Source: Nemertoderma westbladi (lineage: Eukaryota > Animalia > Xenacoelomorpha). From it: a DNA stretch of 39,572 nucleotides. A model generated the notes under the pieces. The model saw only the letters and a list, made by a program, of their open reading frames with translations. It did no database searches and was not told the DNA's origin. Made by a program: the position numbers and the translations under genes. The stretch spans positions 1 through 39,572 of the forward strand of contig JAUCBJ010001962.1 of assembly GCA_032718475.1 (NCBI GenBank), written 5' to 3'. Below are positions 1,903-31,164 of the stretch, piece after piece. Numbering within the stretch: the stretch's first letter is position 1; each line of letters starts with the position of its first letter.

Positions 1903-2220
1903 GAACACATTTATAATTTCTATAGATGCGTACTAAATTATTTCCGGAAACAAAATGATCCGTGGTAAAAATTCTACCAGTGTTTTCTATAGCTGGTAGT
2001 GAAAAAAATCTAAATTGCTGTCCCAACACACTATTTATTAGCAATTATAAAAAATGCAGCGTTATGTACCATGGGGTCGCTAGCGACCCCAACCGTATAC
2101 GTAGACGGCGAGACAGAACACAGGTGGAACGCTGGCAGGGGCGTGGTAGATTATAAGCCACATGCAGATTACATGTCTGTATATGCTTGTACGTGTGCTT
2201 CTTAGGTTACAATTACATGA

Positions 2221-2429
2221 ACAAGTGACTCCTCCCATCCGCATACAGTAAGCCATAATCTGAGGAAATCTTCTCATTGGATGATGTACAGTATATTATC
2301 TCCGGCACAAACACGAGACAAATTTTCAGATTGCCCTAGCAACTCACATTAGCTACGTTATATTTCTGTATATCTAACGAACAAGTGACTCCCCCCGTCC
2401 GCATACAGTAAGCCATAATCTGAGGAAAT
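2221..2429 (+). repeat. ~49-bp direct repeat in the piggyBac 5' region
   Basis: acaagtgactcc.ccc.tccgcatacagtaagccataatctgaggaaat at 2221-2269 and 2381-2429. Confidence 0.85.
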
Positions 2430-2950
2430 GTAGATTATAGGTCACCAAATTATTGGTCGGTAAATTGGTACCGGCCATGTGCCGGGGGTAAAGAAATTAG
2501 TTGTGTCAGTGGCGCCTCAGCCTACCCTCGTGTAGAAGCCAAGAGCTGAAGAGAGAGGTGGCTTTCATGGTTACCTCCGCTCCGGTTCAGTACCTACCTT
2601 GTTGTAGGCCTACTCACCGATCCATTTCTGACTTTTTTTATTGGCTTGGGCGCTTCGCGCCGTTCGCTTCGCTCACCAACCCAATTAGGATTACCTGATT
2701 ACTGTTAGATCTAGGTTAGGGTTGTAATGCAATCCTAACCAAGGGACTAACCCTACCCCCTTCGGGAAGTCCATTCAAACAGTAAAAAAACGGGCAATTT
2801 GAATCCGACGCTAAACTCCACGTATGCCCGGTACGTACCGGACCGGTGGTAGGTAGGCCTACAAAAGATATCAGGCAGGATATAGGCCCTAGTAGGATAC
2901 CGTACAGCCGTAACGGTACCGTTACCGACCATTATTATATATCTCAAAAC

Positions 2951-4639
2951 ATGTCTATCCGGTATACTGCACAGCAAGCCCTAGATATCATACTCAATTA
3001 TGAAAGCGAGAGTGATGATGAAAATGAGGAGGAAATCGGCGACGTGAGCGACCAAGAGGAGGAGGATGTCGTTCTGGAACAGGATGGTTCTTCCGAGAGT
3101 GACGAAGTTGATGAACCGGAGGAGGCCACTCCTGCTGCTACAGCTGCTGCTCCAGCTGCTCAACTTACTTCGAAGGACGGCAAGGTCTGGAGCATCACCT
3201 CTGGGCTGGATCTACGAGGTAGACCTGCGCGTGCCAACATCCTTTGAGAAGCTGCTAGGCCAACTCGTCGTGTTAGGGAGCAGGCAGATACCCCTGCAGG
3301 TGCATTTTCCTGCTTTTTCACGAATGAGATTTTAGACATTATCATACAGTGTACGAACGAGGAGGGGAGCCGGGTTTACCCGGAGACTTGGAGTCCTATT
3401 GACCGGGTTGAGTTGCAAGCCTACCTGGGACTCATACTATTGGCAGGAGTTTATCGAGCGAGATCGGAACCAGTGATACATCTCTGGAACCGGGAAAGTG
3501 GCCGCCCGGTCTTCGGCAATTGCATGGGAAGGAACCGCTTTCAAGTCTTGACTCGTGTCCTCCGATTCGACTCACGCGCGGACCGCGAAGAACGGAGACA
3601 GCGGGACAAGATGGCGCCGATTTGCGTACTCCATGACAAGTTAGCTGCCCTCTGCCGCAACAACTACAAAGTTGGCGCACAAGTTTGCGTGGACGAACAG
3701 CTGGTAGTGTACAGAGGCCGCTGCCCGTTCAAAGTTTATATTCCTTCAAAACCTGGGAAGTATGGCATGAAGGTTTGGGCGTGCTGCGATGTGGACACTG
3801 CGTACCTCACCAACTTCGAGCTGTATACGGGTATGACTGGACGCGGTCCTGAAGTTGGACAAGCATTCAGAGTGGTCTTGCAGATGACCGAGCATCTTTC
3901 AGGAGCTGGACGAGGATGCACAATGGACAACTTCTTCACCTCATACGATCTGGCGCAGTCAATGCTGTATCGTCAGCTTACTTTGTGTGGCACCGTGAGG
4001 AAGAATCGCCGATTTCTGCCTCCTGCTATGCTAGACGTCCGTTCTCGCGCTGTTCAGTCCAGCAAGTTCGCCTTCCACAACGGCATGACACTAGTTTCAT
4101 ACGTGCCCAAGAAGAAAAAGAACGTGGTTCTTTTATCTACGCAGCACCACGATGCCGAAGTTCACGAGGATCGCCAAGACAAGAAACCGGAGATAATTCT
4201 CTACTACAATCGCACCAAGGGCGCCGTGGACACGCTGGACAAGCTTCTGCGCACGTACTCGTGTCAACGCAAGTGCCGACGTTGGCCGCAGTTGTTCTTC
4301 GGGAATTTGGTCGACATTGCTGCTTACAACTCCTTCATTATCTTCTTGTTTTGTTTTCCCGAGTTCATGGAAGGAAAATCCCATCGAAGACGCCTCTACC
4401 TGGAGAAGCTGGCATTCGAGCTGATGGCCGGGAAGATGATGCGGGACCGCCAGGAGGCGCAACCTGGTGCGCAGGCTGTGCCGCCATTGGCTGCAGGAAA
4501 TGCCCAAAGACCGAGGAAGCGTGCCCGTTGCGAATCCTGCCCTCGAGATCAGGATCGGAAGACCACCGAGCGATGCAGCGCTTGCGGCAAGGCCATTTGT
4601 AAGGATCACCTCCGAGTGGTCTGTGTACACGGATGCTAA
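2951..4639 (+). pseudogene. piggyBac transposase (PGBD4-like), ~562 codons with one in-frame stop
   Basis: ATG at 2951 and acidic N-terminus; TGA at 3245-3247, after which the same frame stays open into the 3413..4639 ORF. Catalytic motifs VCVDEQL, TMDNFFTS and GAVDTLD, YIPSKPGKYG, and a C-terminal Cys-rich domain (CESC..CSAC..CKDH..C..C). Confidence 0.93.
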
Positions 4640-4842
4640 CTGTTTTGGACACTTTACCCCGGTGTTGCAGTAAAAACTATTTTATTTTGTTGACCCAAAA
4701 ATGGAATATAGCAGGTGGGGTCGCTAGCGACCCCATGGTACTTAACGTAACTTTTTTTCGCGGTAATTAGAAGGTTAAACTTTAATCAATTATATCAGTT
4801 ATATTTACAAACAAACATAAACAAAATATAACATTAGCTTGT

Positions 4843-5516
4843 ATTATATTATCTGAGTTCCTACAGTATATATCAGTTAAATTATATTAACTGAGTTCCT
4901 ACAGTATATATCAGTTACATTATATTAACTGAGTTCCTACAGTATATATCAGTTACATTATATTAACTGAGTTCCTACAGTATATATCAGTTACATTATA
5001 TTAACTGAGTTCCTACAGTATATATCAGTTTATATTAAATGAGTTGCAACAGTATATATCAGATACATTATATTAACTGAGTTCCTACAGTATATATCAG
5101 TTACATTATATTAACTGAGTTCCTACAGTATATATCAGTTACATTATATTAACTGAGTTCCTACAGTATATATCAGTTACATTATATTAATTGAGTTCCT
5201 ACAGTATATATCAGTTACATTATATTAACTGAGTTCCTACAGTATATAGCAGTTACATTATATTAACTGAGTTCCTACAGTATATATCAGTTACATTATA
5301 TTAACTGAGTTCCTACAGTATATATCAGTTACATTATATTAACTGAGTTCCTACAGTATATATCAGTTACATTATATTAACTGAGTTCCTACAGTATATA
5401 TCAGTTACATTATATTAACTGAGTTCCTACAGTATATATCAGTTACATTATATTAACTGAGTTCCTACAGTATATATCAGTTACAACATATTAACTGAGT
5501 TCCTACAGTATGTATC
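4843..5516 (+). repeat. 38-bp tandem repeat (~17-18 copies)
   Basis: Unit attatattaactgagttcctacagtatatatcagttac repeated head-to-tail with no spacers; about 1.5 more units at 22108-22164. Confidence 0.95.
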
Positions 5517-6114
5517 TGTGAGCGGATTCAATTCCGCTCACTACCCCCATAAAGTTGGGAAGTGGCGCCTTTTTCAGCAATATTGGAGATACAAGATTGA
5601 TAACAACCAATCTCGTATCACACCCAATAATGGGGATAACATACACCCCAAAAGCCACACAAAGGGAGGTTAGAGGTCAAACCACCTCGAGAGGGCAGAT
5701 AACCAACAGCGGGGGGGGGGGGGGGGGGGCACTCCCACAGAGGTGAGAGGCGTGAAGTAGGTCATCAACCAATGGGAACCGGGGAAAAGTATCCACTGGA
5801 CAAAGGCCAAAGTAATGTAGGAATGAATACATATATTATCCCATTACCGGTCAGTTACCCAGTTTACTCAGTCATTCAGATCAGTGCAGACCGGTGATGT
5901 TTTTCACCATCACCGTCACCATCACCGATATCCTACCTACCGGTATACAATACACATATATTATCCATCACAACTGTGCTATCATTGACTATTCATTTCA
6001 TTGATATTAATTACTAAAGGATCAAAGAGATAACAACAAACTTTTCCCATTATTCTCAATATCACGGTGACGCATAGTTCGACAAACCGGTTGGGATCCC
6101 TTGATCCCATCACA
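5517..6114 (+). repeat. 5' LTR of A1
   Basis: TGTGAGCGGATTCAATTCCGC...GATCCCATCACA; TATA-like ATATATTA at ~5831 followed by TCAGT initiator-like motifs. Confidence 0.9.
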
Positions 6115-6142
6115 GTGAAAAACTCCCAACAACCCACAAACT

Positions 6143-8319
6143 GTGACTGCCAGAGGGGAGAATGAGCACAGGACAACAACGAACAGGACGATACCAACGA
6201 AACGATCCGTGAGGCCGCGACGCGACGGTACTGACCTGCGATGCCGGATTCGCCGACGAGAGACAATCCGGCAGTCCAAGCGGAGGGCGGTCGTCTACAA
6301 CAAGGAAGGGACGAGTCGACGCACGACGGCAGTTGAAGTACCGAATATGGGAATTAAGTTAGTGGGTTGGGCAGATCCATACGAGGGCGAACCCGAGGTT
6401 AACCCCGAGGATTCGGTCTCGTCAGTTAGCGAGAACCCCAGAAAGCGGGGGAAAGTTAGTAGAACAGAGAGGCGACGGGAGTCCGTCGCGACCGGTAAGT
6501 CCGCTACATCCTCCGCAAAAGCAAGAAGGGTGTTAGAGATAGATCTGGCGTGTCAATTAGATATGGTGGCGCTAGACCAGAAAGAATTAGAGAGGCAGTT
6601 GGACGAGGGAACTGCGTTGTTAGAGAGAGAGAGAGAGTTGGCGAGGGAGTGTAGAGAGAGGGCCGAGAGGGTGGCGAGAAATTGTAGAGAGCAAGAAGAG
6701 AGAGAGATAGAGGAACGTAAAGAGCGAGAGACGAGAGTAGAGAACAAGCGTAGAGAGCGAGAGACGAAAGTAGAGAACGAGCGCAAAGAACGAGAAGTAA
6801 GAGAGGCAGCGAGGGTGGAGAGAGAAACGAATGAATATAAAGAGCGAGAGTCGAGGGAGGTAGCAACGGCAGAGAGAGAGATGAATGAGCATAGAGAGCG
6901 AGAAGCGAGGGTAGAGAGCGAGCGTAGAGAGCGGGTGGCGAGAGAAACAGAGTTGGCAAACCAGAGTTTGCGAGAGGATAGAGAAAGAGAGAGGGCGGGA
7001 AAGCAAATGTGGGATGATATGCATGCCCAGTTGAGGGGGCTTATGCAATATCAGGCAAAACAGAAGCGCCGACTAGAACTGGCGCAGTTGGGACTATCAG
7101 AGAGTGAGGCTGGCTCGGGTAGTATTTACGAGGAGCCAGAGGTTATGGAAACGTTTGTTAATATGATGATATATACAATGATTTAAATCCGAACGATCCT
7201 AATTTAAATAATCCAAATAATTCAAATAATAATCTAGATTCGAATATGCAAAGTAATTCAAATAATTTAAATTTAAATACGCAAAATAATCTAAATAATA
7301 ATTTTAATTCAAACAAACAAAATAATCCTCGATTCCAATCTAAATATACAGAATAATTTAAATAATAATCCGAATTCAGAACATAATTCAAATAATTTAG
7401 AAAACAATCTTGATAATGGTGCTATTAATATAAAAGCGGCAGATGTAGGTGGTCCGGCCAGCGAGAGCCTGCGAGGCCACATAATTAGTAAGCAGGGGGT
7501 AGCAGGAGTAAGAGACCCCGATGGGAGCCTGGAAGGCCACGTAGTTAATACGCAGGGAGTAGCGGGGGTGAGTCGACCCGACGGGAGCCTGCCTGGCCAT
7601 GCAGTGATAGAGGGAGAGGCGGGGGTGAATAGACCCACCCACAGTAGAGATAATGCGTCGACTAGAGAGGGGCATAGAGATGAAGCGAGAGATAGTGAAG
7701 TGATAGGTGGCGAATGGGGGTGGGGGGGGGGGGCTACAGGCGCCACACAACGAGAGATTAGCGGCGAGAGGGGGGGGGGGGGGCAGAGAGTGTCCCACAG
7801 GCGTCGGCGGCGGACAATGCGCGGGGCGAGTTAGGTGAACCGCAGCACCCGGCGACGGAGAGTAATAGGGGGATTACGAATATCCCCAGCGGCGTGCGAC
7901 CGGCTAGTGAGTGGGAGGTTGGCGTCGCGAGCGGGCGAGCGACGAGACGTCGAGCCCAGTCAGAGGAGGGAAGAAGAACAGTGGAGTTTAACCGGTAGGT
8001 CAACGAGAGATCTCACGAGCGGGGACACTATACTGAAGAGAGAAGAAAAGAAGAGAGTGGAAGAGGCGTTGCTGCGAGCGACCGGAGAGCGAGGACAGAC
8101 AGCGAGCCATCAGTAGTTGAGATGGAGTTGGAGAGTCAGTGGGGTCGAACTCCGGGAGATTGCCGTCACCCCAGAGAGACGCAACCTGGCGAGGTGTACT
8201 ACACGCCGAGAGAAGGGTACATGGCATACCAGTACGAGGACGAGAATAGAAGAGGGGATCGGAGAGAAACTCCCCGACGGGATATAGCTGCCGATCGAGG
8301 GTACAGTAGTCGCGGGGAG
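6143..8319 (+). pseudogene. gag: Degenerate gag N-terminal region of A1 (PEDSVS motif, E/R-rich coiled coil, Asn-rich tract)
   Basis: ORF 6143..7186 has VNPEDSVSSVS (typical of BEL/Pao Gag N-termini) and a long coiled coil; frameshifted continuation; closely similar to 25808-27330. Confidence 0.7.
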
Positions 8320-9509
8320 TGTTCGCGCTTTCAGACCTTTAGCAGTTTAACCTGCCAAATTGGGATGTCTTCTAGATAATAGATCGTCTTTAGCCTATGA
8401 CAAGTATTTGATACACTACATTAGCCGAAGCCAGTCTATGCGCGATCATTCACCCGCTGGATATACCCGGGAGACTGGATTCGGGAGCCTAACCGTATTG
8501 CGGGGTAGGCCTACTGTATTATTCGACTGATCGTAATATATAATCTCTGACAAATATTATTCACTTTCGGGAAATATTAACAGTTCCTTTAGGACGTGGC
8601 GCTCTAAATATATAAACAGAGTTATGACTAAAACCAGACACAACGGGATGGCTATAGATTCACATATATGGCGCATTCTTTAGGAGATGCTTCGTTATCA
8701 ATCACGATCATACACAATACTGCACAATGCTGCACACCAATCTGCCGACCTTCACTAATTTTAGTCACATATAAGGAGAACAACAGACAATACGTGTAGG
8801 GCCTATAAAATAGCATTAGATTCACTTCAAACCACTTAATGTAAGTCGCAATTGTTATATGTAACCGGTCTCTCTAACCTTTAGTATATCAAGAAGATTG
8901 GGGTGTCTGATTATTTATCAGTATTCCAAATATAATATTCCATCAACAAATATAATGAATAACCGACAGTAAAAGCAGCAAATTGTTAAGGTATAAATTG
9001 ATATGATCGCTTTGTTAAGTATGTCAGTATGGTATGATTTGTTAAGTTAAGTGAGTTATGTTAAGATAACGGATATACGTTCTATAATTAAGCCTACTAA
9101 TGTTGAGCTAAAGACTGAAACACGGAGGTTCCACGCCGGTGTTGTAGGCTGTGGACAAATCACATACTGACTCAACTCCACGAGTTTCTATATACAATCT
9201 CTAACACAGAGGCAAAAAACGCTCTGATTGGTCGACCGAACAAAGAAGGAACAGAGAACAAAGAAAAGGTCCACGTATACAGCATCAGCTGTTAGCCGTC
9301 GTCATGGTAGCTACACTGTTTACAGAGGATTTGGCGCATTGCGTCATAAAATTGCTAATCATGTCCGCTAAAGTACACATACAGAAGAAATAGCTTTTAT
9401 GTCCTCTAAAACAACAGTACAGTAAGGACACGGCCTTTTATGCCTGTTAAACCAACTACAGAGTACTTTACGGGGAAAATAACCGGCTAATTACTCAAAA
9501 GCCTTTACA
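8320..9509 (-). repeat. 3' LTR of element B (1190 bp)
   Basis: Direct repeat of 20162-21355; about 13 substitutions and one 4-bp indel by eye. Confidence 0.97.
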
Positions 9510-9518
9510 CCGCTCCCA
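9510..9518 (-). promoter_or_regulatory. Polypurine tract of element B (TGGGAGCGG)
   Basis: Purine-rich run immediately before the 3' LTR TGT on the minus strand. Confidence 0.7.
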
Positions 9519-9587: not shown

Positions 9588-12500
9588 TTAGTCTTTCTTA
9601 CGCGGACGGCGTTTACGCAGTTTTTTGAGGCTAGCAAGAGTCCTCTTCTCTTTGGGGCGAGCCACCTTACTAGGAGGGCTGTAACTCCTGGGTGAAGGGT
9701 GCAATACAATTGCATCAGAAGGTTTAGGATTACGATCGGTGTATCCTCCGGTCGAGGTACCTGGTTGATCGATATCAACTTCAGTGGAGCGAGGTCTAAC
9801 GGCCTTTAGGGCGCGTCTTAGGACAGCAGCTCCTACGGGTCCTTGACGGGTCGTCTGGACAATGGCGGTAGGCGGACCGTGAGTGGTGAGAAACTTCCTT
9901 GGTTTAATGGTTCTTTCCAGCTCGCGTTCTCGGGCTCGATATTCGTAGGGCCGTCGAGATACTTCCTGTAACTCAGGGTGCGAGTTGATAAATAAATCGC
10001 CATACTCAGGGTCTTGACGGATGTAATTGATCAAATGGTATGAAGTAATATCCTTAGGATTGACGTTCCTAAGATATTTTCGAACAAATTTGGTGGAAAT
10101 ACACTCACCAACACGCTTCATTAGTTCGTAACTCGGTGTGCGTGTTTTTTGTTCCACAGACGCGAATAAATAAGGATGGAACGCGTAAACTCCCTCGTAA
10201 GAGCGTCCAGGGTAGTAGTGATGGCGGGCCTCACAATGTAAATCCGCGTTCACTTCCCAAGCTCGGATGTAGCGCAGGGTAATCATCTCATCTACGCTTT
10301 CTAAATCGCAGTTAAAGGGGCAATTATAACTGGCATGTCCTTTAAGTTGACAGTGGTGACATTGGGTCATAAATTGGGGGCAGACTGCAAAAATATGCGA
10401 GTTATTAAGTCTGCAATACGCACAATAGATCTCCATCATCGGCTGTTCGTGGAAATAGGAGCAGGGTACATCTGAGTCCATAGGGGTGAAATGGTCTCTC
10501 AATGCGCATAATCGACAACGTTTTCGAGAAACATAGTTGGCGTGTCGATAATCGTATGCGGTGAGACATTGTGGACCTTGATACCACTCCAAGACGTAAT
10601 CGTTATCGCTGCTCCGGGGCGCTGTAGGCTGGATCGCTTCAGACTCTAAGCAGATTGGTTTGTCTTCCAATTGCATAGCTGAGGTAGGTGCGGCTGTCTC
10701 CGCAAGCGGACCCACTGTCTGAACTTCCACGACAGAATAACCCGTGGGTATTCGGGGTCTTTGTATAACAGATGAATGTAAGTTCTGTACACAAACGTCC
10801 TGAAAGAGAGCAAATCCCGCGCTGTTTAGCTTCTCCGCAGCTGAGTCTCTTAGGCTGAGTTTGGTCAGAGCGCGGTCCTTGAACTGACTATCAACGTTAC
10901 GGAACGGAGTCAGAAAGCGCCTGAAACATTCGAAGCGGATGAATTTATTGTGTTCATCTAACTTGGCGAGTTTGGTTCCAAGTATTAATGGATGGGCGCG
11001 TATGGTACGACTGCACACATCGGCTAGCCAACCGGCAAGTGCTGCGTTTTCAAAGATCGTGTATATAGCTAAGGAGGGACGAAGTGGAACACTCATAAAG
11101 CTATACACGGCGCCAGGTGCGGTCAATGGTCCATCAAAGTATAAACGAGAATAATGATCTCCATATACTTGTTGGTAATTTATAGGATTTCCAACCTTGA
11201 AATTCCATCCGTATTCTTGAAAGGCAAGATGTCCGATGGAGGTTCGTTGTACTTTAGTAATGCCGCTGGGTGTATTGGCATACATAGTGCGGAAGAAACC
11301 TCGGCCTTCTGCCCAGGGAGCAATCAGCTGAGTATCCACGAAAGGGTATGGAATGTTCTCCATATTCCGAAAGTCGTTTTGTAGATCTCCATAAACAGCT
11401 GAGCCGATTTTAAGGATTCTTTCGTTAAACAACATCTCGAGCACGGGCTGGGGTAACATCGATCCATCGATACCCATGGCCGGTTTGCGCTCGGTGTCGG
11501 CGATGTAACGCTGCGCGAGCTCGAATTGTCCATGTCGGAGTTTCTTTTGCGTCTCAGTAAGAATTTCAAAGGAATAATCAATCACATCAGAACACGCTCG
11601 AGTAAATATGTGGGTAGAACCAGCGAGTCCTCGTATGTGTGTCATCCGCGTAGTTCCCAGTTCTCTAACCGGAACGCTACCTTCGTTGTCGTAGGTGACA
11701 ACTCCATACATCTCGATAACGTTAAGAGTCTCATTCCACTCTTTAGTGGCGTTTTCAAGGGTCATTCCCACAGGATGCCACAAGGTAGCGCATTCGCTAG
11801 CATTAGGTAGGTCTCTATACTTTAAATATTGTGTGGTATATGTTTCCACATCTCCATATCGTTGTATTCTTTCCTCCTCGAATAACACGTCAAGATTCCA
11901 GTGTACTAAACGAGTTTTGATGAATCCATCAAGATTATACGGAGGTATTGTTTCTTTCTCTATTCTGGAAACATTGTATGGTTTTTGAAATGAGTTTATT
12001 TTAACTAACTGATCCAGATGTTTATGCAGTTGTTCGAGTTCGACAAGATTGAGAGGATTTATGAGTGGTAGAAACCTCAGACTATGTGTAGGATCTTCCG
12101 GTTTTATCATGTAATATTGTGTTAGGTTGACGTAATAAGGGTGATCTTTGATCCCATAAAACGAGTCCAGTAAAGGTCTAGCGCGTATGTTTACATCGTG
12201 TACCATGCGACGGACAAGATCCGCTCTATTTTCCGGAGGTTCAACGAGTATACCATCGACACGAGCGGCTTCGATGGGTGGACGTTGCAACATGGGAGCG
12301 TCAGCGATAAGATCTCTAGATCTTAGGTTGATATCAACCGGTTGGGGTTGTATCGTCGCAAAGAGTTTGTCTCCGAAATGGGGAACCATCGAGGGATGAA
12401 GGATGGTTTTAGAGTAGAGATCCGTCATAAGGATTTGAGCTTCGGGTTGAGCTAAAGCTGCTTCTTCTCTCTCATCTAGTTCTATATGTCTCTCCTCGAG

Positions 12501-13535
12501 CTGATTTTCCTCTGCTTGTTGTTGTAGACGCTCATCTAGGAACTCTTGTAAAGAGTAGGTTCGTCCACGTTCGATGTCCTCCTCGAGATTTTGTATTTCT
12601 CTATCGAACTGGGGTAAAGCTAATTCCTTCACCGCTTGGACTTGTTGTTGCAATTTACGTTTCTCCAAACAATCGTAAGTTCCTTTTCCGATTTTCTGCC
12701 GAATAGCGTCTAACGCGTTTCGTACGACGCTCTCTTCGACTTCCGTAACGGGTTGTATCGAGGTGAAGCCGGGACGGTTGTGTGGGTTAAACGGCGATAT
12801 TAGATGACCGCATCCCAATCCAGCTAGGTAGGGTTGGCGAATATCTAGCGAGCCTACTACCGGAGTACCACCAATCAACTGTTTGGGTAACACTAGATCT
12901 TTGAACAGTGAGTACAGTTCGGGAGGATCCGTGATACTATTAGGATCAAGAGTCTGAGGTCTAACTGAGGAATGAGGAGGTCTGACCGAGTATTCCGGAA
13001 CTCTGATTATTGGTTTGTTCAAGGATCGTTTGAGTCGAGCAACCGTAGGGGATACGTCGAACAGGTTTCGCTCGAAACTCCCATAAGTATATCGTGTAAA
13101 ACTGTGTTTAGCGCAACGTCTCCGCGGATGTTTATGTCTTTCCGTTTGCTGATTGGGTCTAGGGCACTCGTCGCAGTAATACCAAAGACGCACGTCCTGC
13201 AGGGGAAACGCGGGTGATCGTTCTCCAGTTTTACAATATTCCTCCATCTGTTCGAAGCTATCTGGGACGACAGGTAGCGGTCGATCGGCGGTGAGATACA
13301 TCATAGTGAAATAGAGTCGTTTGAGTTCTATCATAGGGTCATGATGTATACCTTGGGGATATCGAGTTTCGAGATTTTGTTGACTGGCAATATTGAGGTA
13401 TGTCTCTCTCAGGAATTCCAGATAATCATTGAAGTCGCTGCGTTTATCCGGCTCTTCAACGTCTTCCCTTTCGAGTTTGTTTCGAATAGAGTTCTCGTGT
13501 TCGCTATGAACGCACAAATTCAACACAACTGCCAT
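9588..13535 (-). CDS. Accessory ORF of element B, 1315 aa: DEDD(y)-type 3'-5' exonuclease plus three CCHC zinc knuckles
   Basis: Uninterrupted ORF. ExoI VVTYDNEG, ExoII region LPQPVLEMLFNERILKIGSAVYGD..FVDTQ, ExoIII-like PLRPSLAIYTIFE. Knuckles CRLC..H..C, CAYCRLNNSHIFAVC and CHHCQLKGHASYNC; basic C-terminus. Confidence 0.85.
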   Translation of the reverse strand: MAVVLNLCVHSEHENSIRNKLEREDVEEPDKRSDFNDYLEFLRETYLNIASQQNLETRYPQGIHHDPMIELKRLYFTMMYLTADRPLPVVPDSFEQMEEYCKTGERSPAFPLQDVRLWYYCDECPRPNQQTERHKHPRRRCAKHSFTRYTYGSFERNLFDVSPTVARLKRSLNKPIIRVPEYSVRPPHSSVRPQTLDPNSITDPPELYSLFKDLVLPKQLIGGTPVVGSLDIRQPYLAGLGCGHLISPFNPHNRPGFTSIQPVTEVEESVVRNALDAIRQKIGKGTYDCLEKRKLQQQVQAVKELALPQFDREIQNLEEDIERGRTYSLQEFLDERLQQQAEENQLEERHIELDEREEAALAQPEAQILMTDLYSKTILHPSMVPHFGDKLFATIQPQPVDINLRSRDLIADAPMLQRPPIEAARVDGILVEPPENRADLVRRMVHDVNIRARPLLDSFYGIKDHPYYVNLTQYYMIKPEDPTHSLRFLPLINPLNLVELEQLHKHLDQLVKINSFQKPYNVSRIEKETIPPYNLDGFIKTRLVHWNLDVLFEEERIQRYGDVETYTTQYLKYRDLPNASECATLWHPVGMTLENATKEWNETLNVIEMYGVVTYDNEGSVPVRELGTTRMTHIRGLAGSTHIFTRACSDVIDYSFEILTETQKKLRHGQFELAQRYIADTERKPAMGIDGSMLPQPVLEMLFNERILKIGSAVYGDLQNDFRNMENIPYPFVDTQLIAPWAEGRGFFRTMYANTPSGITKVQRTSIGHLAFQEYGWNFKVGNPINYQQVYGDHYSRLYFDGPLTAPGAVYSFMSVPLRPSLAIYTIFENAALAGWLADVCSRTIRAHPLILGTKLAKLDEHNKFIRFECFRRFLTPFRNVDSQFKDRALTKLSLRDSAAEKLNSAGFALFQDVCVQNLHSSVIQRPRIPTGYSVVEVQTVGPLAETAAPTSAMQLEDKPICLESEAIQPTAPRSSDNDYVLEWYQGPQCLTAYDYRHANYVSRKRCRLCALRDHFTPMDSDVPCSYFHEQPMMEIYCAYCRLNNSHIFAVCPQFMTQCHHCQLKGHASYNCPFNCDLESVDEMITLRYIRAWEVNADLHCEARHHYYPGRSYEGVYAFHPYLFASVEQKTRTPSYELMKRVGECISTKFVRKYLRNVNPKDITSYHLINYIRQDPEYGDLFINSHPELQEVSRRPYEYRARERELERTIKPRKFLTTHGPPTAIVQTTRQGPVGAAVLRRALKAVRPRSTEVDIDQPGTSTGGYTDRNPKPSDAIVLHPSPRSYSPPSKVARPKEKRTLASLKKLRKRRPRKKD

Positions 13536-14033
13536 AAACTGTACACATTCGGGCCATTTGTCCGTTAGTCAGTACCTTCCAGAATGTCACTTTATTTATT
13601 ATGTATCCTTGGATACTAGCAGTGCGCTATTTATTCCCTATGCTATTCAATGGGGTAAGCCTTCTATTGTTCTTTTAACTCACTTCTAATTCTAGCGTGG
13701 TTGTTGCCATGGTGACATTATGGAAAGCTAGCGGTAGAATTAGGGTAATTCTCATGCATACAGATCTGGGATGCTATTTAATAGTAATTCTTTAATTGTC
13801 AATATCCTCTCTATATATGATTTTATGAATTTTATCGGCTATTGACTATATATTGGAGATTCTCGCACACTAATACACTTAATAGAGTGAATCTCCGCTC
13901 CCATGATCTATTAATTAATGGAATTTTGGGAATGTTATAAATTGTATAAAATGACAATTTATTAAATTCATTGAAATATATGAATTTAAATTTATTCCCG
14001 TAAATTTTATTATTTAATGTTAAATAGACACAA

Positions 14034-14297
14034 TTTTATTCCAGAACGTGTCTGGGGACTGGGATCCTTGATTCTAGGAATTTGTCTTTTTAAGAGTATC
14101 GGTAAGTGCTACGATATCTTAATCGACTAGAATTTTAAAGGATCTAAAATTTGACAGATTTTGTAAATATTAATAATTAATATTTAGGATGGGCACCAGT
14201 TTATTCCAGAACTTGTCTGGGGACGTTAACCACTGATTCTAGAATTAGTCTTTCAAGTATATCGGTGGGTGCCGCGATATCTTAATCGACTAGAATT
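14034..14297. repeat. ~100-bp imperfect direct repeat in the pol-accessory ORF spacer of B
   Basis: tttattccagaac.tgtctggggac...gatatcttaatcgactagaatt at ~14035-14134 and ~14200-14297. Confidence 0.8.
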
Positions 14298-14845
14298 ACA
14301 GATGGTCAAAAGGTTTAACAGCTTTATTTTGCGTTATACGCTACTGTTAAAAGGACATCACGCTACTATATGTATTATTTAATATACGGTATGAGAGCAA
14401 TATCGCACGAAGCAATGTCAGTGAGAAGAGGCAAGTCGTTTCCAAGGTCTACCCAGAGCTTGGTTTAGCCGAGACACGAGGATCTGAACTTTGCATTCCT
14501 AATACTCTGCTTACCAATAATACTTGAATATAGTAGGAGCTTTATTGTACTTTAATAAGTACAGATATTTCATCTTACTGTAGTCACGTATTTATAATGT
14601 AATACGGACAGTAAGGAAAGAGAAAAAAAATTATTTCTCGCCGTCGCACTAAATATATAATATATAAGTAATTAAGTAATAAACGCGAATATATATTGCA
14701 CTAATCTACTAAATAATCGCTAAAATAACATTCTACTAAGTAAAATTAAAGAAAACGATTATAATAAAATACATAATAATATATACATAAATACAAAAGA
14801 ATAAAACAAATATAAAATCTAGTCATACACCCACTCCAGCCGTTG

Positions 14846-15195
14846 TTAAGTTGGGGAGTCCCTAGATGTTTGTTGGATTAGGGAGGTGGTCGTAGGAAGA
14901 GTATCTTGCCTCCCATAGTTTCCGGAGAGTTCTCTGTCTCTTTCCAGTAAACATAAGCGACCAACTGGGCGATTGAGCTGCTGTGTCTCGAAGACAATTC
15001 CCGGTTTCTTGAAGTTACGTCGCATGACGACGAGTTCTACCGATCGCACCAAACCATCATCCGAGATGTGAGTCTCGATGATACGACCTGTCTGCCACCG
15101 CTTACGTGGAAGATCTACATCCACAATAAGAACCATGTCTCCAGCGCTGACGTTTTCTTGCTGCGCAAACCACTTAGTTCGAAGTTGTAGCGTGA
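14846..15195 (-). pseudogene. pol: BEL/Pao pol C-terminal remnant (DUF5641-like integrase tail)
   Basis: TLQLRTKW..GDMVLIVD..PRKRWQTGRIIETHISDDGLVRSVEL..RPVGRLCLLE. Confidence 0.9.
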
Positions 15196-16889
15196 ACTCT
15201 GATATTCATGAGACTTACCTAACCAATCTAATTGTCTACAGATCTCTTGAATCTCATCGGAAAACTCTATTATCCCGCTGCTAATGAACTTTCGGGGCGC
15301 TACTAATTTCGCATACAAATATTTAGCTATATTATTCCTATTACCATACCTGATGTTTAGTGTATCCCAAACTTGTCTTAATCCGTCTGGATGTCCAATA
15401 AACTTTAACGCCATTAACTTGGGAGATCCTTCCAAGCACTCGATGAGGAATCTAAGTTTCTCTCCATTAGATAGTACAGAGTTCTGTATGTTATCTTTAT
15501 AATATTCATTAAAAGGTAACCATTTCATCTCATCTCCATTGAACTTGACTATCTCTCCCACCTTTACCGCTTGACGTGCTTCGGTTCTAGCCATTTGACG
15601 CGTAAAACTTTCTTGGGCCATCGTGTTATTCAATATCGAGTTATCGGTATATAAATTTCTCGGATTATGATCAGGTCTATAGGGAATATCATTATCAACA
15701 GGTCTATAATTACCCTTAATAGGGTTCACTATAGGAGTTTCTACTTCGCTAGCAGTATATATGCGTGTAGGCTCCACACATTGCGCATGAGATACTTCAG
15801 ACCTAACAGGTTGACACATTGTTACAGGGGGTGGTGGTATACCTCGTTGTGTATTTACTAATTTATATCGCTCTAAAGCGATACTTTGCTGCACTTCTTG
15901 CAACTCTAACCTACTTTCCCTTACTGTGCCCTTGAATTGCTGAACAGTCTCCTGCATCTGCCCGAGCAGGAGATCCATCCCCCGTCGTCTCTCATCCACC
16001 CACTCGACCGCCGAAGCGGGAGCCGCCAACGTTGTAGCGGGCCGACGAGGGACAACGGGCAACAAATCATTAATATTTCGCTCGGAGTCCAGGACATGAG
16101 CATTTTCAAGGGTGGTTCTGTGTGGCACAGATAGCTTAGTGCTGTGCAGAGGGAATTTAGAGGTAGGTTCAGGGAGTACAGGTGTCTCTATCACCGAAGG
16201 AGTGGCTTCGGGAACAGGCCTAATTATTTCAGGCTCATCTACTATAGTAGGGAGTCTTTCTATTTCAATTATTTGGTCTGTGGGTTCTGTACTACCTAAG
16301 TTTGTGTTATTTAGTTGCTTTCTAACAGCTGGGGGCAAATCCGGCAATTTCTGGCGGTGGGATATTCTTCTACGTCTGCTTAGGCGAGATCGATTTCCTC
16401 CGCCTTCAGGATCGGTGGTATCGCCTTCCTCAGATATGTATTATATCCCTGTCTTTTGGGAGTTGATCGACTCATCATCTGCATATTACTAGCTGTTAAC
16501 TGTTTATTAAAGTTGTCTTGCTTCTCTTGGAGATTTTCCAACTCTAGTTGGGCGATCTCTTCAGCCGCTCTCCGTTCTGCTTCTGCCACCGCTATCTTTC
16601 TTTCCGCTTCTGCCGCTGCTGCCGCTTTTGCCTCCGCTGCTGCCGCTTTTGCCTCTGCCGCTGCTTCTGCCGCTGCCGCTTTTGCCTCTGCCGCTGCTTC
16701 TGCCGCCTTTCTTTCTGCTTCTGCTTCTGCTGCTGCCGCTGCTGCTATCTTTCTGTCTTCTATACGTTTTTTCTTTACTTGTTCTTCTAAGTTGAGTTGT
16801 TCATCAAATTTAGCTTGGTTCGCAGCTCTCATATCCACATCAATGGCGTCCAACACGCTGGGTTCCTTCACTATTAGGGCTAAGTCCAT
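15196..16889 (-). pseudogene. gag: gag of element B (Ala/Glu coiled coil, DUF1759-like capsid), frameshifted and C-terminally deleted
   Basis: IVKFNGDEMKWLPF..LSNGEKLRFLIECLEGSPK..WDTLNIRYGN; frame change near 16445; zinc knuckles absent. Confidence 0.85.
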
Positions 16890-17910
16890 CTAGCCTTCTC
16901 CTCAACTCTTCATCACCTAAAAAACGTTGATAGTCTGACAGATAGATGTCAATGGCATCCCTCTTATGCGGTTTCTCTGCCGTCGCTTCACTTTCCACTT
17001 GTGAAAAAGTAGCATCTGTTGATTCTCCATGGGTTGAGCGCTCATCTAGCTGAGCTTTCCACTGAGCTGTTCCTTGAACCTGGAGACTCACCCGTTGAAA
17101 CCAAGTCTTTACGGCAACTTGCAACGACGTGTCTTGTCTTCTTTTAGAAGCCTCCTCAAAGGCCGATAAGATTAGCCTGATTCGTAGAATTCTTTCTCTA
17201 ACTTGATAAAGCAGCTGTCCCTGCTCTTGAGGTCCTTGGGGTTGTTGAAACAGTTGTTCTTTTAATCGCTCCATGGAGCTGAAGAATCCCTGTGCGTATC
17301 CTACTGCGGACCTCTTCCACACAGCTGGATCGATGGTTTCTTTGGTTACTCCCATCCTGTGTATGTCTTCCCACGCAGCTTCTGATAAATCAAACGGGAG
17401 TCCGGGTCCGGGGAAGTTCCATTGCGACTCGACAATAGACTTCAGTTCTTCCCTTGTGTATCCCGCATAACTATCTTTAGTCGATCGCTTATTTCTCGCC
17501 CAATTGATCTGGTGTTCTTCCACTGCAATCAATAACCTAGTGAGTACGGCTGCAGGAAGGATAAGAAGGGGATCCGAATAAACCGCATCCGTCCTCTTTG
17601 CTCCACGCTCGGGTGTCAGCTCTATAGTATCCTCACTACTGGAGCTGTCGGGCCGTTGAGAAATAAGTTCTTGGCTCGCGGGTTGTTGCTGTTCCGCTGC
17701 TTCTTGGTCCCGCTTGACCTGAGCTCGAGTGCCTATGATAGACCTACGATGTTGGACTAGCCTAGGGTCTGATATTACTATGGGAGGGATGATCTTTCTT
17801 ACAGTAGGAGGTGAGTTGAACTTCGGTCCTACTCGTTCCACACTCCTGTCTGGGTCACATATGGTTGTATCTAGAAGACTGTCTGACAGGTTTTGCTTTG
17901 TGTCAGACAT
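16840..17910 (-). CDS. 356-aa upstream ORF or Gag N-terminal extension of element B, function unknown
   Basis: Open frame from ATG 17910, first ORF after the leader, overlapping the next ORF by 50 nt; no motif recognised. Confidence 0.55.
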   Translation of the reverse strand: MSDTKQNLSDSLLDTTICDPDRSVERVGPKFNSPPTVRKIIPPIVISDPRLVQHRRSIIGTRAQVKRDQEAAEQQQPASQELISQRPDSSSSEDTIELTPERGAKRTDAVYSDPLLILPAAVLTRLLIAVEEHQINWARNKRSTKDSYAGYTREELKSIVESQWNFPGPGLPFDLSEAAWEDIHRMGVTKETIDPAVWKRSAVGYAQGFFSSMERLKEQLFQQPQGPQEQGQLLYQVRERILRIRLILSAFEEASKRRQDTSLQVAVKTWFQRVSLQVQGTAQWKAQLDERSTHGESTDATFSQVESEATAEKPHKRDAIDIYLSDYQRFLGDEELRRRLDGLSPNSEGTQRVGRH

Positions 17911-19243
17911 GTTGGTTTGTACAGTTGAATGCCTACTGCTATATTACAGTTTAAGCAAGCCTAGTAATTCAGTATCACTGTTAGCCTAGTAATTAATTAC
18001 CGATACTGCTACTCAGTGTAGCATGATATATATATAATATATTAGAATACCGGTATGCTTATAGTATATATATATAAGTATTGTCACAGACTAGATTTGT
18101 CACAGAATACCGGTATGTAATTCCAGCACAAGTATATATAAATATATAATAGGCCTATCGTGAATACCGGTATAGATCTTACCACTTATAGTATATATAA
18201 GTATAATTATTAACTAGAATTAATTACAGAATACCGGTATAATTTCAGCCTAAATTTATAGAAATAAATATAATAAGCCTATGGTAAATACCGGTATGTC
18301 AATTATTTTAAATAATTGAATTTCTGAATTAGGGGTTACTTGGTTACTTTAATTTACTTTATTACCGTTATTTGAGCAGTAGTCCAACTGATATTGAGAC
18401 CTAGTTGTTGTATGGCAGGCCTACTATTTATAAATCGGTTTGAGTTGATTTATAATATATATACCCGTTATAATGGGTTTTTGTCAATATTTGAAATAAA
18501 TGTTATTATTTCTGGGGGGAGTCACTACACAGAAGCTGTGCGCTCTCAGTGAAGTGTTACTTGTTGGACACTAAAACAAATAATTCTAATTTACCTAAGT
18601 TACTTAATACTACAAATTACGTACAATTCGGGTGAAATTACAATCTCTAAATAAACACAAAAATTACAAGTACGAATTTTTAGGGTAATTTTACAAGAAG
18701 TCTACTAACCAGCCTAACAAAGGGTTAGAATATCTGGTTATTACAACGGACAGGTTACTACGGTATTTGAAAATAATAAGTAGTAGTAAATATACTGCGT
18801 TGTCCAGATAGAAAAATACCACCGTCTGACGACTTATAGCCGTATCGCTATAAGTACTACGTTATGTATCACGGAGTGTTCCTACCTAGAAGTTAATTAC
18901 CGCGGTCTACCAGAACCAACGTGCCTATTAACCACTTTACAACACAAATATACTGCCTACACACTAATCACCTTCGGAAAGCACTGTACACTAAACCCTA
19001 AATTAGGTACAAGTACTTATACAACAAATAACTAGCAGTTAGAAATACTTGAACAGCTAAAAGAACCACGGTATCTGCCGGAGTGACCAAAGCATAAAAT
19101 CTCCAGTCTTTACCTACGCCAAGCAGCCCTGATGTAGTACCGGGGTTAGTTTAACTGTAACGGTATATATAACAAGCACAATTACTGTAGGAATAAACTT
19201 GGGGAATGAATGTTGCAAATAATCGCATAAACTCTGAATAATA

Positions 19244-19810
19244 AATATTACGCTGCGCGTACAGACTACTCAAACAAAATGCAGACCAAATGATGACAGA
19301 CTACTATCAAGCACAAACAAACTACGGTATATGCAGACTCCGAAATGGTTAGTTAGTATGCGTTCTAACCGAGTAGTATGACTTATTCTTTCGAGGGGGT
19401 TTACCTCACAGCTCTGGAAGCCCCTACGTTCCCAACTGGCACTTTATCGGACATACACTCTACACACACCGAAATCTCTCAAGACCCAACAACAGCCAGA
19501 CAAAATCCAGCCTACAAATTATCTAAGTAAGAAATATTACGCTACCCGTACAGACTACACAAACAAGGTACAGACCAAACGCTGGCAGACTACTATCAAG
19601 CCTAAATACACTACAGTATATGCAGACTCCGAAATGGTTAATTAGTATGCGTTCTAACCGAGTAGTACGACTTATTCTTTCGAGGGGGTTCACCTCACAG
19701 CACTGGCAGCCCCTACTTTCCTAACTAGTACTTTTTCGGACATATGCTCTACACACACTACAGTCTCTTCAGACCTAACAACAGTCAGACAACAGTCCAG
19801 GCTACAAATT
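19244..19810. repeat. ~289-bp tandem duplication in the long 5' leader of B
   Basis: aatattacgct..gtacagactac..gcagactccgaaatggtta..ttattctttcgagggggtt.. occurs twice (from ~19244 and ~19533). Confidence 0.85.
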
Positions 19811-20149
19811 GTCTGTACAATCTGAGCAGGCTTACACGCCTTCTGCTCAATGCTGGCCTACAAATAAATAAAACTGACAGAAATAAGTAAGCTCCAAAAG
19901 AAACAAGGGGTGTACAGTCCCTAATCTCTTAAACAGCCTACCGGTATACAATTTCACAATCGAATAATACTGCTGTACCTGTACTGCTGTAGGTACCGGT
20001 CCGGGTGGTTAGGTAGTCAGGCCTACTAGGTACCGGTTAACCGGTACTTCAGCTTTATTGCCTACTGCAATACAGAAGCGTATATCCGTTATTGTTCTTA
20101 CCAGAACAATATTAAACTGTATTTATTGCCTACACCGCAATCCGAACTT

Positions 20150-20161
20150 TATATCCGTTAT
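20150..20161 (-). promoter_or_regulatory. PBS position of B (ATAACGGATATA), non-tRNA, complementary to its own LTR
   Basis: Abuts the 5' LTR end; reverse complement of LTR segment 20912-20923; no TGG start. Confidence 0.75.
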
Positions 20162-21355
20162 TGTTCGCGCTTTCAGACCTTTAGCAGTTTAACCTGCCAA
20201 ATTGGGATGTCTTCTAGATAATAGATCGTCTTTAGCCTATGACAAGTATTTGATACACTACATTAGCCGAAGCCAGTCTATGCGCGATCATTCACCCACT
20301 GGATATACCTGGGAGACTGGATTCGGGAGCCTAACTGTATTGCGGGGTAGGCCTACTGTATTATTCGACTGATCGTAATATATAATCTCTGACAAATATT
20401 ATTCACTTTCGGGAAATATTAACAGTTCCTTTAGGACGTGGCGCTCTAAATATATAAACAGAGTTATGACTTAAACCAGACACAACGGGATGGCTATAGA
20501 TTCACTCACGTATATGGCGCATTCTTTAGGAGATGCTTCGTTATCAATCACGATCATACACAATACTGCACAATGCTGCACACCAATCTGCCGACCTTCA
20601 CTAATTTTAGTCACATATAAGGAGAACAACAGACAATACATGTAGGGCCTATAAAATAGCATTAGATTCACTTCAAACCACTTAATGTAAGTCGCAATTG
20701 TTATATGTAACCGGTCTCTCTAACCTTTAGTATATCAAGAAGATTGGGGTGTCTGATTATTTATCAGTATTCCAAATATAATATTCCATCAACAAATATA
20801 ATGAATAACCGACAGTAAAAGCAGCAAATTGTTAAGGTATAAATTGATATGATCGCTTTGTTAAGTATGTCAGTATGGTATGATTAGTTAAGTTCAGTGA
20901 GTTATGTTAAGATAACGGATATACGTTCTATAATTAAGCCTACTAATGTTGAGCTAAAGACTGAAACACGGAGGTTCCATGCTGGTGTTGTAGGCTGCGG
21001 ACAAATCACATACTGACTCAACTCCACGAGTTTCTATATACAATCTCTAACACAGAGGCAAAAAACGCTCTGATTGGTTGACCGAACAAAGAAGGAACAG
21101 AGAACAAAGAAAAGGTCCACGTATACAGCATCAGCTGTTAGCCGTCGTCATGGTAGCTACACTGTTTACAGAGGATTTGGCGCATTGCGTCATAAAATTG
21201 CTAATCATGTCCGCTAAAGTACACATACAGAAGAAATAGCTTTTATGTCCTCTAAAACAACAGTACAGTAAGGACACGGCCTTTTATGCCTGTTAAACCA
21301 ACTACAGAGTACTTTACGGGGAAAATAACCGGCTAATTACGCAAAAGCCTTTACA
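20162..21355 (-). repeat. 5' LTR of element B (1194 bp)
   Basis: Direct repeat of 8320-9509. Minus-strand TATATAGA (~21040) lies ~26 nt upstream of a TCAGTA initiator-like motif (~21014). Confidence 0.97.
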
Positions 21356-21360
21356 GGGAG

Positions 21361-22107
21361 GACTTCTTGGATTATTCGAGAAGGTTAAACTTCGGTCTGG
21401 AGGGACACATACAGACTGCAGGACATACTGTAGGCCTTACTGCACATACTATAGGCCATGCTGGGAGAGATAGTGTAGGCGATAGGGTAGCGCGGACAAC
21501 GGGATTAAACCCGGAAGTCGCGGAGTATATACCGGTAGGTAGGCCAGAAGAGGATAGGCATATACCGGTACCAGCACAGCAGTATGACTATAACATGCAG
21601 GGACATAACATATATCCAGGGGAAGGGAGAGTTATTGCGGATAGGTGTATGGGCCCCAATATATTAACATCAACCCCAGTACCAAACATACCACTGGTGG
21701 GGGGGGGGGGGGGACAGGGTGACATTCCCCCATTACAATATCAACAATATACTCAAACAGAAATAAGAACATCGAACCCCATGGATGACAACAGATCTTG
21801 CGACCGGAAATATGGAGGGGGCCGTTACCCCCAATGTTATATCCGACGCAAAGGAAGGCAACAGGCCGGACGGGCGGACCGCACCCAATGGGAGAATCTG
21901 TACAGCATCCTTCGAACCCATTGGAAGCACAGGCGATGGGAATGGCTACATTAATCGATGCACTCAAGACCAGAATCGAGCTACCACCCGTAGAACCATT
22001 TAAATTCGACGGAAGTAGGCCGGAAGAATACCTGCAATTTCGGCGCATGTACAGCAACGAGATATTAACCAAGAACCTGACGCTGGCAGAGTGCCTAAAA
22101 TATCTAC
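21361..22107 (+). pseudogene. gag: Continuation of A1 gag into the start of the capsid domain
   Basis: IELPPVEPFKFDGSRPEEYLQFRRMY..LTLAECLKYL matches the BEL/Pao capsid start (DUF1759-like); frameshifts upstream. Confidence 0.75.
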
Positions 22108-22339
22108 TATTAACTGAGTTCCTACAGTATATATCAGTTACATTATATTAACTGAGTTGCAACACCGTTGAACCTAAACCGAATTGTTATTTCTATTTAC
22201 CACAATATTATTTATATATTATTATTAATTTTTATTCCGACTGAAAATTTGTCCTCCAGGTAAATCGACGTTACTCAATAACTGGCAATTATAAAAAAAC
22301 AATGGAGGTAAAAATAAAGTATTGGAGACTTCTATCTCT

Positions 22340-25155: not shown

Positions 25156-25261
25156 GTATAAAGTCACCGACTGGCCTAGTTACTCAGTTACTCAGTACGG
25201 TCACAGTACGGCTACTGACCCTAAAGAACTGTGACTGCCAGCCACCAGAAGGATAGACAGG

Positions 25262-30986: not shown

Positions 30987-31164
30987 AGTTTAGTCGTCCA
31001 AGTGTTGGACTGAGGGGGGTGGGATTGAGGGCGAGACGCCCTTTCCACACAAATATAAAACATAAAAAAAAATAATAAAATAATAGAGAAAGAGAGAAAG
31101 AGAAAGGAAAGTAATAGTACATAGTAGGTACGTAGTAAGTAAGTAGGCAGATAGAAGTTAGTCA

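Follow-up and report, generated by a model that had tools for sequence, protein, structure and literature searches.

A retrotransposon of 13,036 bp occupies the minus strand of a 39,572-nt stretch of the Nemertoderma westbladi genome (assembly GCA_032718475.1, contig JAUCBJ010001962.1, forward strand), which was analysed as a whole and is referred to here as the window. The element is bounded by a pair of long terminal repeats (LTRs; 1194 and 1190 bp) that are 98.6% alike, with 13 mismatches and four gap columns, have TG...CA termini and are flanked by a 5-bp target site duplication, CTCCC. Along the sense strand, a 2.25-kb leader is followed by a gag region, the tail of an integrase, a third open reading frame (ORF3), a short polypurine tract (PPT) and the 3' LTR (Table 1). 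ORF3 encodes 1315 amino acids (aa) and is very probably a real, selected gene of the element whose product has a DEDDy-type nuclease fold.

Organization of the element and of ORF3

The gag region is split over three frames (17910-16840, 16889-16380 and 16440-15115), the last of which matched DUF1759 in Pfam (E 2.1e-10). Gag joins the integrase tail directly near position 15195, and this copy has no protease, reverse transcriptase (RT), RNase H or integrase core. Loose ends of contigs from public sequencing runs at 15194 (run X3) and 15197 (run X1) indicate that other copies continue with different sequence at this junction, for which a pol deletion in the window's copy is the simplest reading. 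This copy is a derivative without pol and has decayed ever since it inserted. A preliminary description of the locus, made from the sequence alone, had reported an intact ORF; ORF3 is indeed open, but the copy that carries it is not intact, with almost all of pol lost, gag in three frames and private changes that look neutral (see below).

Judged by its domains, the element probably belongs to the BEL/Pao superfamily: its gag and integrase-tail domains are DUF1759 and DUF5641, which we take as BEL/Pao markers, and the integrase tail matches the tail of a second element in the window that carries the Pao peptidase family PF05380. Further hallmarks of this superfamily, namely LTRs with TG...CA termini, a target duplication and a PPT, were present, and its tRNA-type primer site was not (see below).

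As previously noted for this locus, ORF3 has no internal stop and lies between the pol tail and the PPT, starting 1310 nt downstream of the integrase-tail stop and ending 78 nt upstream of the 3' LTR. The longest open run obtained by chance was 208 aa (200 shuffles of the internal region). The gene is intronless. The highest 19-residue hydropathy was only 1.19, located on the ExoIII helix of the nuclease domain described below, and no transmembrane (TM) segment is therefore assigned; inspection alone, without a predictor, revealed no extended hydrophobic run at the N-terminus that might act as a signal peptide. An env identity, already dismissed in the preliminary description, was rejected on hydropathy. 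The N-terminal 590 aa matched no family in Pfam, NCBIfam or PHROGs scans, in keeping with their earlier description as unrecognised apart from a CDEC cluster and a coiled coil; the cluster (C121-x2-C124...H134, H136, C141 and H144) may be a zinc site and the coiled coil is predicted at aa 274-365.

Expression of ORF3 from a spliced RNA of the env type would fit two sets of motifs, i.e. a GGTAAG in the leader that resembles a splice donor (the first 4 kb contain two such motifs) and a branch-point-like sequence with a CAG acceptor-like site 3 nt upstream of the ATG. The pyrimidine tract at the acceptor-like site is weak, and none of the best 15 of 151 joints connects the leader donor with the ORF3 acceptor.

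Table 1. Features of the element and of ORF3 (positions in the window)
Feature	Position	Strand	Basis
5' LTR, 1194 bp	20162..21355	-	LTR-LTR comparison
3' LTR, 1190 bp	8320..9509	-	LTR-LTR comparison
Target site duplication CTCCC, left copy	21356..21360	-	Sequence
Target site duplication CTCCC, right copy	8315..8319	-	Sequence
Candidate non-tRNA primer-binding site, +1 after 5' LTR	20150..20161	-	12/12 complement to LTR
LTR nt 433-444, candidate self-primer partner	20912..20923 (3' LTR copy: 9066-9077)	-	Perfect complement
Duplicate primer-site motif at +70, at least 14-base complement to LTR site	20079..20092	-	Sequence
TATA-like box and initiator-like TCAGT motif (LTR nt 316 and 340, respectively)	21012..21040	-	Motif only
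Splice-donor-like GGTAAG in leader	20097..20102	-	Motif only
Gag region, coiled Ala/Glu/Lys repeat	15115..17910	-	Open frames and Pfam
Integrase C-terminal tail DUF5641, sole pol remnant	14846..15195	-	Pfam E 1.3e-15
Branch-point-like CTGACTAAC and CAG acceptor-like site	13539..13572	-	Motif only
ORF3, 1315 aa, ATG 13535 to stop 9588	9588..13535	-	Open frame, zero internal stops
Cys/His cluster, possible zinc site	13104..13175	-	Sequence
Charged, predicted coiled coil, aa 274-365	12441..12716	-	Heptad score and composition
DEDDy-type 3'-5' exonuclease domain, aa 600-845	11001..11738	-	Motifs, profiles, homologue, alignment A7
Catalytic residues	D616 (11690), E618 (11684), D717 (11387), Y825 (11063), E829 (11051)	-	Motif register
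Three zinc-knuckle-like motifs, aa 1007-1072	10320..10517	-	Sequence; zf-CCHC_3 E 0.038
Basic C-terminal tail KKLRKRRPRKK, nuclear-localisation-like, putative function	9591..9668	-	Sequence
Short polypurine tract GGGAGCGG, directly abutting 3' LTR	9510..9517	-	Sequence

ORF3 contains a DEDDy-type exonuclease domain and zinc knuckles

The motifs first noticed by eye (i.e. YDNEG at 11693, LKIGSAVYGD at 11414, FVDTQ at 11342, YTIFEN with its Y-x3-E at 11063 and, in the N-terminus, CDEC at 13175) were found in place. Among the 18,950 models of NCBIfam, the sole match of ORF3 was to RNase D (E 0.005 and 0.03, aa 696-741), which scored 16.1 bits where the cut-off for the whole protein is 299. Bacterial PF01612 domains, taken from 28 loci in the 28 genomes searched, were used to build profiles; one made from 13 RNase D-like domains scored the ORF3 domain at 9.7 bits as compared to at most 2.4 bits in 500 shuffles.

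A HMMER search with aa 440-1140 against 1.84 billion representative proteins returned one protein, P0002 (E 4.3e-6), a singleton of 648 aa from one ENA contig of 9,449 bp. The two proteins share 30% identity from ExoII to ExoIII (E 7e-13) and their knuckles align too; P0002 consists of exonuclease and knuckles and is without the long N-terminus of ORF3. PF01612 matched P0002 only at E 0.2, short of its cut-off, and the neighbours of P0002 in the Atlas were PF01612 clusters, the best (0.86, together with PF00098; 163 of 256 features common) being a lead only, whilst an EXD1-like cluster scored 0.77. With the ORF3/P0002 pair as the query, hhalign against the bacterial profiles gave a probability of 87-88% (E ~4e-6), the match being confined to 50 columns around ExoII.

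In an alignment of 27 bacterial family members with P0002 (alignment A7), D616, E618, D717, Y825 and E829 of ORF3 fall in the D/E/D/Y/D columns of the family, at no more than ~20% identity between the bacterial members and the ORF3 domain. This alignment was selected for its correct register, all five residues being in register in 3 of 304 trial alignments; few were, because two insertions, one of ~45 aa after the third strand and another before ExoIII, mislead the aligner. The register of ExoI varies with the alignment options, given the insertion. VVTYDNE of ORF3 matches ILSIDVE of P0002 along with the strands that follow. Alternative ExoI motifs (D653...E661, or IADTE at 678-682) were rejected for wrong spacing or lack of space for strands 2-3, and alignments A2-A6, in which ExoI or ExoIII was out of register, were not used for modelling.

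An AlphaFold model built on alignment A7 had a mean pLDDT of 60; values of 70 or higher were reached by 117 of its 295 residues, and the insertion was poorly modelled. All of the best 50 VIA-align rows for this alignment-conditioned model were either nucleases of the DnaQ/DEDD type or polymerases that contain a domain of this type, the best with a Z of 12.3 (rmsd 3.3, 171 aligned); Z-scores were 11.2 for WRN, 11.1 for Exd1, 11.0 for RNase D, 10.5 for Nibbler and 9.6 for Egalitarian. Foldseek of the same model gave no match at E ≤0.001, its best being RNase D (E 3.8e-3).

Several results speak against a DEDDy nuclease. The nuclease region of ORF3 had no match at the curated Pfam cut-offs, a single-sequence AlphaFold model (pLDDT 30) had no usable fold, and nothing significant came from PDB sequence searches with ORF3, a two-row profile or the knuckle region. 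As the A7 model is conditioned on a chosen DEDDy alignment, its fold matches show compatibility and are not independent proof. The fourth acid, which is Asp in all 27 bacterial rows, is Glu in both ORF3 and P0002 and may lower or change activity. The DEDD site that had been proposed for ORF3 needs one correction, its fourth acidic residue being Glu829. A DnaQ/DEDDy domain, whose absence would have counted against the original proposal, was recovered weakly by the unbiased NCBIfam scan, and also by P0002 and by the motif register. Overall, the DEDDy assignment can be regarded as firm for the ExoII-ExoIII part and as good for ExoI, and ORF3 probably encodes an active nuclease.

Further relatives were sought with little return. 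Word-index protein searches found nothing new with the exonuclease region (proteins of 723-2302 aa) or a two-row profile (138-501 aa), and only P0002 itself with the P0002 region (356-1134 aa). DNA scans of metagenome contigs (twice) and viral contigs (once) gave no locus, and tblastn against phages gave no relative. The two-row-profile PDB, viral-contig and 138-501-aa negatives are weakened because their query was the mis-registered alignment A2.

Three CCHC knuckles had been described downstream of the nuclease domain. The second and third are near-canonical (CX2CX5HX4C at aa 1038 and CX2CX4HX4C at aa 1059) and the first, at aa 1007, is stretched and non-canonical (CX2CX4HX9C). The knuckles of P0002 match retroviral nucleocapsid proteins (E 1e-4). 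The only other ORF3-like place in the window is an ORF at 33338-34126 (+), which resembles ORF3 in its CCHC knuckles only (E 3e-4). Knuckles and DEDDy domain together would make up a module for trimming RNA ends.

An alternative is that the domain acts on DNA and proofreads the cDNA, or trims its ends, in an element of unusual length. The fold matches to WRN and to the proofreading domains of polymerases are just as good (Z 11.2-12.3), and the element measures 13.0 kb even without most of pol as compared to 4.2-10 kb for Belpaoviridae (PMC8742986). DEDDy genes have also been described in 40-kb Terminons (PMC6431247) and in Dada transposases (PMC3706591). Such a DNA-side role is nevertheless quite improbable: ORF3 is not fused to pol, and both the knuckles and the RNase D-type best sequence match point to RNA.

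ORF3 is retained by purifying selection

The stretch occurs in public runs of one organism, which account for five of seven listed rows. Copies of the element were compared through contigs from four of the runs at 80% likeness. Contigs covered all 30 bins of the stretch in all four runs, and pieces that were 80-87% alike at depths of 3,000-7,000 occurred beside pieces of depth 16-30. This spread points to many copies in several subfamilies, depth being no copy number. Differences in ORF3 were classed at 54 distinct sites (16 from the best 40 of 2,808 rows, with the best 40 of 160 rows), the rows being the best supported and their choice blind to reading frame.

Among the differences that vary between copies, 38 of 42 were synonymous as compared to 30% expected (P = 6e-16; crude ratio of nonsynonymous to synonymous changes [N/S] ~0.05). 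These shared synonymous changes include the third positions of V613, T614, Y615 and D616 in ExoI; the three listed differences near the Cys/His cluster (codons 120, 123 and 128) were likewise all synonymous. Differences private to the window's copy, i.e. those at which at least 97% of run X1 differs, were synonymous in 3 of 12 cases (N/S 1.3); none of those listed falls at the five catalytic positions, and D616 has one synonymous change. No indel was present in 11010-11730 among the rows listed for the four runs. In 32 listed long pieces, five gag pieces being left out, gap letters numbered 16 in 9,409 nt of ORF3 (23 pieces) as compared to 40 in 1,393 nt of non-coding DNA (four pieces). The 12 differences listed on the gag side are too few for a comparison of selection. 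The family retains the ORF3 protein by purifying selection, and the window's copy has drifted since its insertion.

Selection across copies also bears on whether ORF3 is a passenger, i.e. a recently captured host gene that is open only through the youth of this copy. The open frame alone means little, since the LTR divergence predicts 0.9-1.8 stops in the window's ORF3 and a 16-40% chance of none, and the private changes have the neutral-like pattern that a passenger would show. The shared differences and the diverged copies, which at 80-87% likeness and depths in the thousands retain the frame, indicate instead that ORF3 is not a one-off capture. The gene has no introns and, in the word-index and full HMMER searches, no close cellular homologue. 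Capture by a single copy, the outcome that would have undone the original proposal, is largely refuted and very improbable.

Conservation of the active site is relevant to a further alternative, in which ORF3 is a catalytically idle RNA adaptor whose DEDDy fold and knuckles bind RNA and whose coiled coil links to transport or localisation machinery, as in Egalitarian. An Egalitarian-BicD-RNA structure is among the fold matches (Z 9.6), the fourth Asp is Glu in both ORF3 and P0002, and PMC5408684 cites Maelstrom and EXD1 as inactive DEDD derivatives that retain RNA binding. Against this, the four acidic positions and the Tyr are retained in ORF3 and P0002, which are only ~30% alike, and D616 has only a synonymous change among the listed differences. 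Idle nuclease domains usually lose their catalytic acids and Tyr. An idle adaptor is accordingly improbable.

The element lacks a typical tRNA primer site

The primer-binding site (PBS) of Belpaoviridae consists of 18 nt complementary to the 3' end of tRNA-Arg or tRNA-Gly (PMC8742986). No TGG start was present before +59 after the 5' LTR of this element, which does not have the tRNA-type PBS of BEL/Pao; this was judged without host tRNAs and leaves room for priming from inside a tRNA. The 12 nt at +1 are a perfect complement (12/12) of LTR nt 433-444, and a duplicate of the motif lies at +70. Complements to the LTR of at least 12 bases occurred at 5 of 10,612 internal start points, four of them at the +1 site and its duplicate, and 0 of 5000 LTR shuffles held the primer-site match. 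The perfect pairing suggests self-priming. Complementarity between the PBS and the LTR of the same element is the mark by which self-priming has been recognised in Tf1, Tj1, Tcn1 and TAR (PMC4600332 and PMC6317226), and the +1 site has this Tf1-type property. From the TATA-like and initiator-like motifs (Table 1), transcription is predicted to start near LTR nt 342, which would place the partner ~90 nt inside the transcript. The window contains no tRNA genes, and PHROGs and Rfam scans gave nothing meaningful.

Proposed function of ORF3

We propose that ORF3 encodes an RNA-binding 3'-to-5' exoribonuclease whose main task would be the trimming of a primer or of other ends of the element's own RNA (probability of roughly 0.35). 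The 3' ends of structured RNAs are processing targets of DEDDy enzymes. Primer making is proposed as the task because the element is without the usual tRNA site. ORF3 protein would come from a subgenomic RNA, either spliced or with a start of its own, in the manner of env proteins, and would be loaded onto element RNA by its knuckles. LTR nt 433-444 of an element RNA would then pair with the primer site; this RNA might be a cleaved leader, a short transcript of the LTR or a genomic 3' end. As these nucleotides sit ~90 nt inside the predicted transcript, the carrier RNA would extend past the duplex; the nuclease would trim this overhang back to the duplex and leave a 3'-OH from which RT, supplied by pol-bearing copies, could start. 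The strand trimmed would most likely be the one paired at the primer site. Processing of element-RNA 3' ends was also proposed for rotifer DEDDy genes by Rodriguez et al. (PMC5408684). The full scenario, in which a BEL/Pao lineage dropped tRNA priming and encodes a D-E-D-E exoribonuclease with knuckles of the nucleocapsid type that trims RNA to a 12-14 bp primer duplex, is unlikely as a whole.

Several points count against primer trimming. Tf1-type self-priming requires only the RNase H of RT, according to work cited in PMC4600332, and the ORF3 and primer-site traits therefore need not be linked. In computed folds of the leader, the LTR site pairs with the +70 duplicate and not with the +1 site. 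Runs X1 and X3 contain joints that bypass 2.5-2.7 kb of ORF3 and whose sides are short (22-33 letters), and ORF3 may hence be dispensable in cis. No single copy was seen with both full pol and ORF3.

The nuclease might alternatively serve counter-defence, by binding either element RNA or complexes of small RNAs and over-trimming or destroying piRNAs, siRNAs or antisense RNA directed against the element. Two structural neighbours in the alignment-conditioned comparison, Nibbler (Z 10.5) and Exd1 (Z 11.1), are small-RNA pathway proteins; a separate gene in an accessory slot, with a basic nuclear-type tail and a coiled coil, would suit this role, and derivatives that have deleted ORF3 could receive help in trans. 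The catalytic domain is, however, under strong purifying selection with no sign of an arms race, and the primer site is left unexplained. Counter-defence is rather unlikely in absolute terms, and primer trimming is only slightly ahead of a defence against piRNAs.

Other features of the element and of the window

Within the element, tandem duplications of ~290 bp (19233-19814), ~120 bp (18058-18297) and ~163 bp (14000-14325) lie in the leader and in the spacer between pol and ORF3. Just past the integrase-tail stop, a purine run followed by TG at 14829-14837 (minus strand) resembles the element's PPT-LTR junction. This run may be left over from a former 3' end, the ORF3 cassette having joined the element behind it; the DNA after it has no similarity to the present LTR, no relic of which was found between pol and ORF3.

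The element is nested in an older one (5517-8319 and 21356-22100), the left part of which is 81-85% like the second BEL/Pao element, and the entire nest seems to have landed in a 38-bp satellite (4730-5599, with a further unit at 22108-22164). The second BEL/Pao element (24609-31655, plus strand) is decayed, with protease, RT, Pao peptidase and integrase pieces that contain in-frame stops; downstream of its pol tail lie a purine run and tandem repeats, and no third ORF was seen. A piggyBac-type DNA transposon at 2049-4758 has 43-nt inverted ends, a DDE_Tnp_1_7 match (E 7.5e-79) and one in-frame stop at 3245. The front end of a non-LTR retrotransposon (34029-35969, minus strand) encodes a PHD-like ORF1 and an apurinic-type endonuclease. 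A 310-codon open frame in AT-rich DNA (23764-24696, minus strand) gave faint WD40/beta-propeller matches (E 0.06-0.18), and a MITE-like palindromic repeat array lies at 38711-39301.

Comparison with known elements and implications

The closest precedents by description are the bdelloid rotifer LTR elements Juno and Vesta, which have DEDDy third ORFs, as do Athena/Terminon elements (PMC5408684 and PMC6431247); the preliminary description had pointed to such ORFs in rotifer retroelements. DEDDy is also cited as a known accessory domain in PMC6338049. In Juno and Vesta, as in our element, the env slot is occupied by a third ORF of its own, which encodes an RNase D-like DEDDy protein without a TM segment and with its acids kept (PMC5408684). 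There are also differences. The carrier here is BEL/Pao, and the text contains no whole-word 'BEL'; the motif is D-E-D-E instead of DEED; the rotifer ORFs are without a coiled coil, which ORF3 has; ORF3 has knuckles and a 590-aa N-terminus, and 'CCHC' is absent from the text; and the rotifer genes show no significant departure from neutrality within genomes as compared to strong selection here. The rotifer proteins did not surface in the word-index and HMMER searches.

Belpaoviridae share with the element LTRs of up to 1.2 kb, a short PPT, BEL-type gag and integrase-tail domains and a third gene between pol and the PPT (PMC8742986 and PMC3118150). The element differs in that its third gene encodes a soluble nuclease-fold protein and not an env-like one, in the lack of a tRNA-Arg/Gly primer site and in its length, which exceeds 10 kb although most of pol is gone. 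Cellular DEDDy enzymes (PF01612; RNase D, WRN-exo, EXD2, EXD1, Nibbler/Mut-7 and Egalitarian) have in common with ORF3 the D-x-E of ExoI, the D of ExoII, the DTQ motif and the P-L-x6-Y-x3-acid register, and match its alignment-conditioned model (Z 9.6-11.2), whereas ORF3 has Glu as the fourth acid and insertions after strand 3 and before ExoIII, and no HRDC domain was seen in it. The post-LTR primer site of Tf1/Tf2/Tj1, sushi, Tcn1 and TAR also complements the element's own LTR and not a tRNA end (PMC4600332 and PMC6317226); the partner in Tf1-type elements is the 5' extremity of the mRNA, unlike the internal partner predicted here, and the self-primed elements are Gypsy or Copia lineages and not BEL/Pao. 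Dada DNA transposons are mobile elements with a DEDDy exonuclease whose catalytic residues are conserved; their domain lies inside a DDE transposase and is proposed to act on DNA ends (PMC3706591). A literature search, which did not extend to subscription papers or Repbase, found neither an exonuclease ORF nor self-priming in BEL/Pao.

What is new relative to known nuclease cargo is its presence in the env slot of a BEL/Pao element, the D-E-D-E site, the knuckles, the demonstrated selection and the non-tRNA primer site. Third genes of BEL/Pao elements have been described as env-like and of unknown function; ORF3 encodes a nuclease-fold protein that is predicted to bind RNA. The clear purifying selection indicates that the element needs ORF3, a need that the rotifer study could not show, and nuclease cargo is thereby extended to a second LTR superfamily. 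The domain is small and soluble, and offers a handle on the role of such cargo, whether in primer making, blunting of piRNA defence or RNA carrying. As the non-tRNA site lies in the same element, the primer idea is testable by RNA end mapping alone. If true, an enzyme-trimmed primer would add a third means of initiating LTR reverse transcription to the two that use a tRNA or a self-primer cut by RNase H.

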